This document shows, one piece after another, positions 15,546 through 62,220 of a stretch of DNA of 64,000 bases. Source of the DNA: Escherichia coli (GTDB lineage Bacteria > Pseudomonadota > Gammaproteobacteria > Enterobacterales > Enterobacteriaceae); NCBI RefSeq assembly GCF_003334335.1, contig NZ_QOWQ01000022.1, one strand, 5' to 3'. The notes beneath the pieces were generated by a model. It had not been told where the DNA came from. It searched no databases and saw only the letters and a list, made by a program, of their open reading frames with translations. The position numbers and the translations under genes are program-made. Numbering within the stretch: position 1 is the stretch's first letter; every line of letters starts with the position of its first letter.

Positions 15546-16634
15546 TTAGAACTGGTAAACGATACCCACAGCAACGGTGTCGTCTGAACCTACGCCCAGT
15601 TTGTTGTCAGAATCGATCTGGTTGATGATGTAGTCAACATAGGTGGACATGTTTTTGTTGAAGTAGTAGGTTGCGCCCACTTCAAAGTAGTTCACCAGAT
15701 CAACATCACCGATACCTTCTACGTCTTTCGCTTTAGATTTGGTGTAAGCGATGGACGGACGCAGACCGAAATCGAACTGGTATTGCGCAACTAACAGAAC
15801 GTCTTGCGTTTTGTTGGCGAAGCCGCTGGTGTTTGTAAATTTATTAGTGATCGGCGTAGCGTTACGGGTTTCACCGTAGTTCGCTGCCAGGTAGATGTTG
15901 TTCGCGTCGTACTTCAGACCAGTAGCCCACTGTTCAGCTTTTTTACCGTTGCCAAGAGGTTGAGCTTCTTGCAGGTTGGTACGGTCAGCTGCACCATAAG
16001 CACCAACGATACCAAAGCCTTCGTATTCGTAGCTGATAGAACCGCCAACACCGTCGCCGTTAGAACGGCGTGCAGTGTCACGCTCGTTTTTACCCAGGTA
16101 CTGAACAGCGAAGTTCAGGCCATCAACCAGACCAAAGAAGTTGGAGTTACGATAGGTAGCAACGCCGCCAACACGACCAACGAAGAAGTCATCGCTGTAT
16201 GCAGTATCACCACCAAATTCTGGCAGCATATCGGTGTAACCCAGTGCATCATAAACCACACCGTAGTTACGGCCGTAATCGAAAGAACCAACGTCAGCGT
16301 ATTTAAGACCCGCGAATGCCAGACGCGTTTTGTTACCAGTTTGAGCGTCAGCGCCTTCAGAGTTGTTACCCTGGAAGTTATATTCCCACTGACCATAACC
16401 GGTCAGATCGGAATTGATTTGAGTTTCCCCTTTAAAACCAAGACGGGCATAGGTCATGTCGCCATTGCCACCGTAACTGTTTTCACCGTTACCCTTGGAA
16501 AAATAATGCAGACCAACAGCTTTACCGTACAGATCTACTTTGTTGCCATCTTTGTTATAGATTTCTGCAGCGTTTGCAGTACCTGCTACTAACAGAGCAG
16601 GGACGATCACTGCCAGAATATTGCGCTTCATCAT
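15546..16634 (-). CDS. ompF: outer membrane porin OmpF
   Basis: 362 aa ORF with signal peptide, C-terminal VGIVYQF typical of enterobacterial general porins. Confidence 0.97.
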
Positions 16635-16789
16635 TATTTATTACCCTCATGGTTTTTTTATGACACCTGCCACTGCCGTCAATAAGTTCTGTCAATAAAA
16701 ATTTACGGAACTATTGATGAGAGTTTGGTGTCTTTATGTGTCTGCAGGCATCTTTCCATTCAAACTAACGTTTCGCTACCGTGAAAGTG

Positions 16790-16880
16790 CTACAAAGATA
16801 AAGATTTGGTTTCAAAAAGAAAAAATATGTAACCAAAAGTAAAATTTAAGGAACTTTGTGAACACCGTCATATTTCCATA
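16790..16880 (-). promoter_or_regulatory. ompF promoter-proximal OmpR-binding region
   Basis: Contains TTTACTTTTGGTTACATATTT (reverse complement of 16823-16843), the classic OmpR site sequence upstream of ompF. Confidence 0.6.
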
Positions 16881-17198
16881 GAGACGTGATGATATTTACA
16901 GCAATTTTAATCTATTTATATGATTTCCTTATATTTAAATTAACTAAACGGAAATTTTGTTTCTGATGGAAACTTTATCGACCTGGCACAAAATCTTCTT
17001 TCAGACATCCAGAATGCCAAAAAATAGTATGAAAATTGTGCTATTAGCTAAGAAAAAACTAATCCGCAATAAGAATGCGGATTAGTTTTTGCGCGTAAAT
17101 GTTGCAATGTAATATTCCGTAACAGGATGATCGTTATGGCGGGGTTGCAAATAGATTGCTTGACTTAACAAACAGATAACTTGACAGAAAAGATAAAA

Positions 17199-59913: not shown

Positions 59914-60573
59914 TTAATCGCGGCTAGCGAAGCCCAGAATGCTCAGCAGGCTGACGAAGATGTTGTACAGCGAAACATACAGGCTAACCGTGGCACGAAT
60001 ATAGTTCGTCTCACCGCCATGAATGATGTTGCTGGTTTCAAACAAGATAGCGCCAGAGGAGATCAGAATGAAGACCGCGCTGATCGCCAGATGCAGAGCA
60101 GGCAGCTGCAGGAAGATATTCGCAACCATACCAATCAGCACCACCACAATACCCGCCATCAGCATACCGCCGAGGAACGACATATCTTTGCGGGTGGTCA
60201 GCACATATGAAGAGCAGCAGAAGAACACTAACGCCGTTCCGCCCAGTGCCATAGCGATTACGTCACCCATTCCGGCAGACAGATAGGTGTTCAGAATAGG
60301 TCCGAGGATATAACCCAGAAAACCGGTAAAGGCGAATGCGGAGATAATCCCGGTCGGCTTATTCGCCGTTTTATAGGTCAGGAACATCAAACCATACATA
60401 CCCACCAGCGTCAGAATCAGACCCGGAGATGGCAGCATCAGCACCGTACTGGCAGTTGCGGTAATCGCCGAAAAGGCCAGCGTCAGGCTCAGCAGAAAAT
60501 AGGTATTACGCAGCACCTTATGGGTGCTAAGCAGTGATGTACGGTCATGTGAAGAACTAACAATACGATCCAT
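59914..60573 (-). CDS. yccA: Bax inhibitor-1 family inner membrane protein YccA (FtsH modulator)
   Basis: 219 aa ORF with 7 predicted TM segments. Confidence 0.93.
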
Positions 60574-60741: not shown

Positions 60742-60772
60742 AAAAAGGGGTTAGCATTTAGCTAACCCCTTA
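60742..60772 (-). terminator. rho-independent terminator immediately downstream of the serT remnant
   Basis: Minus strand AGGGGTTAGC-TAAAT-GCTAACCCCT followed by TTTTTC. Confidence 0.75.
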
Positions 60773-60779
60773 TCTTATT

Positions 60780-60839
60780 TGGCGGAAGCGCAGAGATTCG
60801 AACTCTGGAACCCTTTCGGGTCGCCGGTTTTCAAGACCG
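60780..60839 (-). tRNA. serT: truncated tRNA-Ser (serT) 3' segment, 60 nt from anticodon loop to CCA end; att core of the adjacent prophage
   Basis: Reverse complement of 60780-60839 matches the 3' 60 nt of the serT sequence as I recall it (...CTTGAAAACCGGCGACCCGAAAGGGTTCCAGAGTTCGAATCTCTGCGCTTCCGCCA); the 5' 28 nt are replaced by AT-rich DNA. Confidence 0.85.
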
Positions 60840-60980
60840 AAGAAAAACAAATGAAAATCAGTGTAATACGTGAATCTGCTGAAAATTTAATTAAATTTAA
60901 CACCAAGAAAAATCAAGGTGTTAGGAAGTTGCTCATAGCTAGTATACCAAGTATTTTTGCCAGAAAATTTTCTGTATTGC

Positions 60981-62000
60981 CTACTTGCTAACCACGAGCG
61001 GCAGATCCAGTGTTGGTGTGATTTTTGTTTTACGATCGTAAATCAACACCTGATTTTCTGTTTTATGCCCGCTGAAAATTTGTTTGTCGCGACTGCTGCC
61101 TTCGTAATCTGAGATCCCCTTGGCTTTTATGTCGTGAAAATTGCACCCGAACGGAACGCCAACTTTTTGCTCGGCTGAGCGTTTAGCCTGATTCCACCAG
61201 TTGTTCAGCGTTTTAGCTATGACTTTCCCGCCTTTGGTTGTATTGATCACATATTCGCATGTACAGGAAGATACATTTCGGGCTAACTGGATCGCTGTAC
61301 GTAATCGCGGTGACCATTCCTTGATTTGTTTGGTGCCGGTTTTGTTTTGCTCAATGTAGATCCCTTTATCCATAATATCCTGCCATTTCAACTCAAGCAC
61401 ATCACCGAGCCTTGCCGCACAGAGATAGGAAATCTCCATTGCAATGCGTAACTGTGGAATTGCTTCCGCATATATCGCTGCATACTGTTCATCGGTGATG
61501 TAAACAGTGCGGGCTTTAAGAGAGAATTTTCTGACTCCTTTACATGGGTTATTCTTCACGTATCCACGCTCATATCCCCACCCGTATACTCGACTCAGGC
61601 TTGCCAGTTCATGATTTGCCTGGGTCTTGCTCTCAAGCCCTCGTTTATCCATGAAAATTCTTACCTGCTCAGTTTTGACATTATCAGCAAGCACTTTTCC
61701 GAATACCATCAGCAACGCCTTCTGATGTTGTCGATAATCTTTTTGGGTTCGGGGGGCCAGTTCTGTAAATGCAGGGGAGTCCATAAACATGTGCCATAAT
61801 TTAGCTACGGTCATTATGTTGTGGAGTTTTGCTTTTTCCAGTTCATAATTTTGCCAGACTTTAGCTACGCTGGTTTTCCGCACTCTTCCTAGCCCTATAG
61901 TTCTTGTACTTCCTTCTGGTTTCCACACGTAACTGTAACCATTCGATCTAACCCGCGGTGGCAGTACATTATCTTTTTTATTTTTTCTTGGTCTTCCCAT
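60981..62000 (-). CDS. int: lambda-family tyrosine integrase
   Basis: 339 aa ORF; N-terminus MGRPRKNKKDNVLPPRVRSNGYSYVWKP resembles lambda Int arm-binding domain; C-terminus has GHKxxxxxxxY-DRK resembling lambda Int LGHKSDTMASQYRDDR. Confidence 0.9.
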   Translation of the reverse strand: MGRPRKNKKDNVLPPRVRSNGYSYVWKPEGSTRTIGLGRVRKTSVAKVWQNYELEKAKLHNIMTVAKLWHMFMDSPAFTELAPRTQKDYRQHQKALLMVFGKVLADNVKTEQVRIFMDKRGLESKTQANHELASLSRVYGWGYERGYVKNNPCKGVRKFSLKARTVYITDEQYAAIYAEAIPQLRIAMEISYLCAARLGDVLELKWQDIMDKGIYIEQNKTGTKQIKEWSPRLRTAIQLARNVSSCTCEYVINTTKGGKVIAKTLNNWWNQAKRSAEQKVGVPFGCNFHDIKAKGISDYEGSSRDKQIFSGHKTENQVLIYDRKTKITPTLDLPLVVSK

Positions 62001-62220
62001 TGTTCAGTGCCTCAAAATCGGGTTCAGCAGAAACCAGTTCAGATGTTTTTGGCATCGTTGTCAGTCCGTGTGGAATATCCCTGCGTAGAACTATTGGTTC
62101 GTTTTTAGGACCGATTACAAATGGGATGCCGTGCAGTCTTAACTGGTGTTGCTGTTTTGTGTATCGCTCGTATTTCGTGATCTCTTTAATCTCTGCTGGA
62201 GATAGAGTTAATTCGTACAT
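61978..62220 (-). CDS. xis: putative excisionase (Xis-like directionality factor)
   Basis: 80 aa ORF whose stop overlaps the int start by 23 nt, as lambda xis does; N-terminus MYELTL and basic C-terminus NGKTKKK resemble lambda Xis (MYLTL...NGKKAKS). Confidence 0.55.
   Translation of the reverse strand: MYELTLSPAEIKEITKYERYTKQQHQLRLHGIPFVIGPKNEPIVLRRDIPHGLTTMPKTSELVSAEPDFEALNNGKTKKK

Follow-up and report, generated by a model that had tools for sequence, protein, structure and literature searches.

A probable lambda-type attachment-site arm next to the integrase gene of an Escherichia coli serT prophage

Results

The prophage junction at serT

The window, that is the whole stretch of 64,000 nucleotides (64 kb) that was analysed, is E. 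coli chromosome up to position 60839 and phage DNA starts at 60840. On the host side lie yccA (59914-60573, minus strand), so annotated in the identical region of NZ_AP022815.1, the terminator hairpin of the host serT gene (60745-60771), found by a terminator scan, and the 3' 60 nucleotides of serT itself (60780-60839, minus strand), which codes for a tRNA-Ser with anticodon UGA. This host-derived remnant begins in the anticodon stem and ends at CCA, and ARAGORN detected no complete tRNA anywhere in the 64-kb window. On the phage side, a tyrosine integrase of 339 aa related to lambda Int is encoded on the minus strand (60981-62000) and terminates at a TAG codon (60981-60983, minus strand), and the start of its gene is overlapped by the gene of an 80-aa protein (61978-62220, minus strand) with a Pfam DUF4224 domain. 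The int-proximal arm is thus the 141 bp from 60840 to 60980, bounded by the end of the serT identity (60839) and by the int stop. An AT-rich arm between the tRNA remnant and int had been described by an earlier, sequence-only reading, and both its coordinates and its composition are right: its GC content is 29.1% vs 50.7% for the whole window, and its AT-richness is equalled in just 0.7% of the 141-bp windows across the 64 kb.

The segment 60775-60839 forms a 65-bp identity with the intact tRNA-Ser at attR of JE86-ST05 (NZ_AP022815.1). This block common to attL and attR extends from the anticodon stem, inside which it ends, to 5 bp past CCA. In four genomes an intact tRNA-Ser is annotated at the far prophage junction, the int-side junction in the window has the remnant, and the intact attPs of phage Evi and of the loci L040 and L060 contain the 3' half of the tRNA alone. 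By these alignments, the serT prophage fits the anticodon-loop class, in which one junction regains a whole tRNA gene and the other keeps a remnant. The probable core is 60824-60839, where the anticodon stem halves CCGGT and ACCG flank the 7-nt loop TTTCAAG (60829-60835). The loop centre, 60832 in the window, was used as the origin of all relative positions given below. By analogy with tRNA-integrating phages, the stem halves and the loop are probably the core-type Int sites and the overlap region, respectively. The crossover may fall anywhere in the 65-bp identity; a SNP between phage and host 3' of CCA in ECA64 puts it on the tRNA side of the SNP and allows nothing finer.

The integrase and the DUF4224 protein

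The alignment of the integrase to lambda Int spans residues 1 to 318, N-terminal domain included (E 1.4e-19). A profile of the 65 N-terminal residues gave as top PDB match 1KJK, the structure of the lambda N-domain, with a marginal E value of 0.018, and no arm-binding domain was found in Int by Pfam. The alignment bears out the earlier proposal of a lambda-family integrase with an N-terminal arm-binding domain. At the position of lambda Arg311 the protein has a Lys (FHDIKAKG vs FHELRSLS in lambda; window 61105-61128, minus strand; Int residues ~288-295), and the second Arg of the R-K-H-R-H/W-Y signature (H-x-x-R motif) is therefore missing. The same Lys occupies this position in all seven aligned members of the family, ST64B, 689R5, Fostie, ZF40, ECA64 and EC12 included (loci L014, L015, L016 and L019 among them), and the other catalytic positions are conserved in the alignments, with one exception, the Gln that Fostie has for the first Arg. 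The presence of the Lys across relatives suggests that it is a trait of a functional integrase subfamily. A literature search for precedents of a Lys at the Arg311 position returned none. The DUF4224 protein matches a PHROG family annotated as excisionase (E 1.9e-23) and is presumed to be the excisionase (Xis).

Source of the opposite arm and variants compared

The opposite arm lies outside the window, at the far end of the prophage, and was taken from relatives. Of 5,426 complete E. coli genomes, about 748 carry the integrase and the arm at serT (a longer query gives 741), among them O157:H7 Sakai with its prophage Sp4. Because the prophage of the window, identical to that of JE86-ST05 through int and xis, diverges from it after ~62546, the distal arm was borrowed from genomes with the same or a near-identical int. 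The divergence starts within an exonuclease-like ORF (from 62288, minus strand; 681 mismatches in an ungapped comparison) and indicates mosaicism or an indel.

An uninterrupted attP was provided by phage Evi (LR597642.1), 90.6% identical across the region, and further intact attPs by the IMG/VR loci L040 and L060; far junctions with an intact tRNA-Ser were fetched from JE86-ST05, Sakai, EC12, P15-25 and ECA64. FORC_043 (L008, NZ_CP016828.1), in which two serT prophages are apparently in tandem, gave an attP-like junction: in this hybrid the ykgJ-like gene, the distal repeats described below and the tRNA half directly adjoin the proximal arm of the second int. Most IMG/VR loci end at the int stop and hence come without the arm, and L095 and L096 (Int 76-77% identical), with no tRNA fragment downstream, were left out. 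A distal-arm query that contained the upstream gene was swamped by chromosomal ykgJ paralogues. Three junctions look decayed or rearranged: L079 has a degenerate distal arm with a single CTGGTATA copy and a hybrid host/phage hairpin, in L036 the arm is joined to unrelated DNA after CGGTCT, and in L009 (MFDS1022581) int is truncated and the core absent. Conservation was measured over 17 distinct variants of the int-proximal arm, 75-100% identical, in which 87 of the 141 columns are invariant (62%) and 38% are variable.

A nine-base word common to both arms

The repeat search on the arm alone gave nothing convincing. The word TATACCAAG at 60943-60951 (+111 to +119, plus strand) is the sole exact copy in the 64-kb window, and four matches with at most one mismatch were counted there vs 7.6 expected, which is not above chance. 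This lack of an above-chance repeat set within the arm explains why none could be defined by eye, and the meaning of the repeats emerged only after the opposite arm was added. Words of the TATACCAAG type (at most one mismatch) then occur four times on one strand, once next to int and three times in tandem in the distal arm, outside the window. The distal triple is of the type TATACCAA(G/T) and spans -128 to -97, with the copies TATACCAAT (-128 to -120), TATACCAAG (-116 to -108) and TATACTAAG (-105 to -97), the last reading TATACCAAG in Evi, Sakai and others. In the natural attP of Evi, the repeat search returned exactly this four-copy family, with spacings of 12, 11 and 218 bp. An exact 13-mer, TAGTATACCAAGT, is common to both arms in the reconstruction made from the window and JE86, and was matched by 1 of 300 shuffles; the cross-arm match is weak in some variants, 62 of 300 shuffles equalling it in EC12. 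The largest 9-mer family, with four copies, was reached in 25 of 500 shuffles and is not significant, A-rich words inflating the background.

The outer site stands at the position of lambda P1 and is a candidate arm-type integrase site. Its TATACCA core is invariant in the 17 variants, as are eight of its nine columns, and L060, the most divergent arm, retains both the outer site and the triple. Furthermore, what precedes the distal arm is a ykgJ-like gene, an espV pseudogene or a tail-fibre remnant, three contexts unrelated to one another, and homology among these distal ends sets in precisely with the first copy of the triple, which points to this copy as the outer edge of the functional attP. 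The word accaag, said earlier to be present twice, is indeed found at 60902 and 60946, and the copy at 60946 falls in TATACCAAG. Lambda-type arm repeats had been expected in this arm: one clear copy is there, and the other three of the four clear copies lie in the opposite arm. Repeats are thus shared by the two arms, the lack of which the same reading had named as telling against it.

A second word, AACACCAAG (60899-60907, +67 to +75, plus strand), differs from TATACCAAG at two positions, includes the accaag at 60902 and stands where P2 does in lambda. With its flanks it resembles the third distal site (TTAACACCAAGA vs TTTATACCAAGA), five of its nine columns are invariant in the 17 variants, and it reads AACCTCTAG in L060. 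It is possibly a weak arm-type site, an assignment of low confidence.

Tandem direct repeats are a frequent target of recombination directionality factors, so the TATACCAAG words could instead be bound by the DUF4224 excisionase or by another phage factor, the Int arm sites being elsewhere or absent. The repeat word changes among relatives whose Xis also differ, as this explanation would have it; since word and Xis change together, the covariation does not separate Int from Xis. We consider the explanation unlikely, as the word is found in both arms, a single outer copy facing a tandem triple, which is the distribution of the Int sites in the lambda control, whereas the Xis sites of lambda occur in one arm only (PMC4880445). 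The integrase, moreover, has a lambda-like N-domain, which needs such sites, and in 689R5, where the word is similar (ATATTCCAAG), the Int N-domain is 41% identical and Xis 30%.

IHF-type sites

A scan for the IHF consensus WATCARNNNNTTR gave three sites in every variant. Two of them belong to the int-proximal arm and had been missed by the earlier note. The first, AATCAAGGTGTTA (60911-60923, +79 to +91, plus strand), is a perfect match preceded by an A-tract, at the position of lambda H1; a perfect IHF match was found in just 3.8% of shuffled arms. The second, AATCAGTGTAATA (60856-60868, +24 to +36, plus strand), is core-proximal, has one mismatch to the consensus and stands at the position of lambda H2; in Evi it is part of a direct repeat of 19 nt, the other copy of which is at the perfect site just described. 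The third, AATCAAGGGGTTA (-68 to -56, minus strand), is a perfect match outside the window, in the copy of the serT 3' flank that the phage carries, and is missing from the host copy. In this phage copy (L003 3620-3654; L001 3000-3041) the terminator hairpin differs from that of the host at 60745-60771 and its pairing is kept. When run on lambda attP as a control, the same scans recovered H1, H2 and H', all three as perfect matches, together with P1, P2 and P'1-3.

In the 17 variants, variation in the site at 60911-60923 is confined to the R position and three N positions, and in the site at 60856-60868 to the R position and two N positions; the fixed positions of both are invariant. With random placement of the variable columns over the 13 positions, such patterns would be expected in 5 of 715 cases (~0.007) and 10 of 286 cases (~0.035), respectively. 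These results suggest that the two sites of the arm, 60856-60868 and 60911-60923, are probably IHF binding sites.

The pattern of substitutions also bears on whether the arm could be mainly a spacer or the 3' untranslated region of int, the distal triple holding the sole functional sites and the word at 60943-60951 and the IHF matches being conserved by kinship. Conservation among variants so closely related is weak evidence when taken alone, the invariant columns make up 62% of the arm anyway, and the repeats of the window are at chance level. The substitutions nevertheless avoid the specified IHF positions and TATACCA, whereas neighbouring stretches vary at 50-60% of their columns. In addition, ST64B, whose Int is 49% identical and whose word is different, has a single copy of its own word at +110 to +118 and an IHF-like site at +79 to +91. 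A mere spacer is, in our opinion, improbable.

The spacer, the palindromes and the conserved block

The 30 bp from 60869 to 60898 are the least conserved of the arm, 12 of 30 columns being invariant vs 87 of 141 for the whole arm. The word TTAAATTTAA (60891-60900), cited earlier as a near-palindrome, is present, but is a perfect palindrome of 10 bp; it occurs once and is not conserved. As a specific site it was rejected, since most of it falls within these poorly conserved 30 bp and both Evi and the majority of variants lack it. Xis-binding sites, which had been expected in the arm, could not be defined anywhere in it, 60869-60898 included, and what speaks for their presence is solely the P-arm-like order of the other sites. 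If the analogy with the P arm of lambda holds, this stretch would be the sole room for Xis- or Fis-type sites.

The block TTTTTGCCAGAAAATTTTCTG (60952-60980), which separates the outer site from the int stop, has 19 of 29 invariant columns and contains a 14-bp palindrome, CAGAAAATTTTCTG (60961-60974). A hairpin or a dimer site was considered for the latter and not retained, since Sakai, ECA64 and L060 have lost its symmetry with no compensatory substitutions. That the arm would encode a small RNA or a peptide, or carry a promoter, instead of recombination sites is very improbable: the ORFs that span it, one of 70 aa on the plus strand (60779-60991) and one of 43 aa on the minus strand (60775-60906), run through the tRNA remnant, no Rfam family was above threshold and no promoter-like site was found in the arm, and the sole terminator-like hairpin is that of the host serT.

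Discussion

Along attP, the sites follow each other in the order outer site, IHF site, weak inner site, 30-bp gap, IHF-like site, core, tRNA 3' half, IHF site, terminator hairpin and triple, which matches the P1-H1-P2-gap-H2-core-H'-P'1-3 order of lambda. The inner site agrees less well with a lambda-type reading, being poorly conserved and direct, whereas P2 of lambda and the inner copies of ST64B, ZF40 and Fostie are inverted. Taking the evidence together, we consider that this 141-bp segment of the prophage junction at serT is likely the arm of a lambda-type attP that adjoins int.

From the site order and the homology of the integrases, we infer that recombination follows the lambda mechanism. 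The N-terminal domain of Int would bind the TATACCAAG words and its C-terminal domains the core formed by the anticodon stem. The arms would be folded back by the U-turn bends due to IHF, so that single Int molecules could bridge arm and core, as they do in lambda. The DUF4224 protein would direct excision, probably from the gap at 60869-60898 beside the weak inner site. In the searchable literature we found neither mapped arm sites nor binding or recombination data for the serT, CP-933M and ST64B phages or for DUF4224 excisionases, and no mapped arm sites for 689R5.

The arm would then be an ordinary lambda-style attachment-site arm; its sites are computationally defined, and no paper mapping arm sites was found. 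The TATACCAAG word, the three IHF sites and limits at about -130 and +120 give a concrete minimal attP, of use for integration vectors, for excision assays and for calling precise prophage boundaries at serT. Beyond that, the locus would be an expected example of lambda-type site-specific recombination. In ECA64, the serT prophage (L013, NZ_CM144250.1), which has a variant Int, carries genes for the stx2 A and stx2c B subunits (15789-17029), and the attachment system is thus one used by a Shiga-toxin phage.

We further propose, tentatively and with a little less than even confidence, that the serT att module is a complete lambda-style set which, by comparison with lambda and with the closest relatives ST64B and 689R5, is inverted with respect to int, and that it is served by an integrase subfamily with a Lys in place of the second Arg. 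If true, the Xis-responsive P-type arm would stay attached to int-xis in the prophage, and the integrase family would be a natural test case for the role of the second arginine in tyrosine recombinases. Should both hold, att modules would be invertible as a unit without loss of function.

The architecture of lambda attP is P1-H1-P2-(X/F)-H2-COC'-H'-P'1-3 (PMC4880445). The serT phage shares with it an Int of the heterobivalent kind with an N-terminal domain of the arm-binding type and three IHF consensus sites. Five predicted arm-type positions, a separated pair in one arm and a tandem triple in the opposite one, are likewise common to both, and the presumed xis gene overlaps the start of int, as xis does in lambda. 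The differences are several. The arm word is TATACCAAG in the serT phage and CAGTCACTAT in lambda, and the inner site is direct and weak instead of inverted as in P2. The arm adjoining int is P-like in the serT phage, whereas in lambda it is P', with int overlapping P'3 (stop at +80). The tRNA 3' half and the terminator make the triple-bearing arm of the serT phage ~45 bp longer than that of lambda, while the gap available for Xis is ~30 bp vs ~55 bp in lambda. Finally, the serT phage targets a tRNA gene, its Int has the Lys for lambda Arg311, and its Xis-like protein is of the DUF4224 type.

Closer relatives are ST64B of Salmonella and vB_EcoS-689R5 of E. coli (Int 49% and 55% identical, respectively), which also target tRNA-Ser genes. 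They belong to the same integrase subfamily and have a DUF4224 partner. Their tandem triple stands on the side of the tRNA 3' end, ~100-130 bp outside the core, and an IHF-like site spans -69 to -57; they differ from the serT phage in their arm words and in the tRNA-Ser fragment. The triple is made of TTTTCTCAY words at -131 to -100 in ST64B, which also has the single copy and the second IHF-like site mentioned above (+110 to +118 and +79 to +91), and of ATATTCCAAG words at -132 to -100 in 689R5. In both phages the triple adjoins the 3' end of int or sits inside it and the tRNA is antiparallel to int, a placement which suggests that members of a single integrase subfamily have the att module in opposite orientations with respect to int. 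In 689R5 (L015 2200-2235) the triple is mostly inside the 3' coding end of int, the stop of which is at -107, and this arrangement recalls the overlap of int and P'3 in lambda. Tandem words are likewise found in ZF40 (TTCCTAATAT) and Fostie (TATTATGAA).

Integration at a tRNA anticodon loop with lambda-type arm-type and IHF sites is known from phage P22, whose attP recombines in the anticodon loop of thrW; compared with the serT phage, P22 uses a different tRNA, other arm words and an integrase of a different clade.
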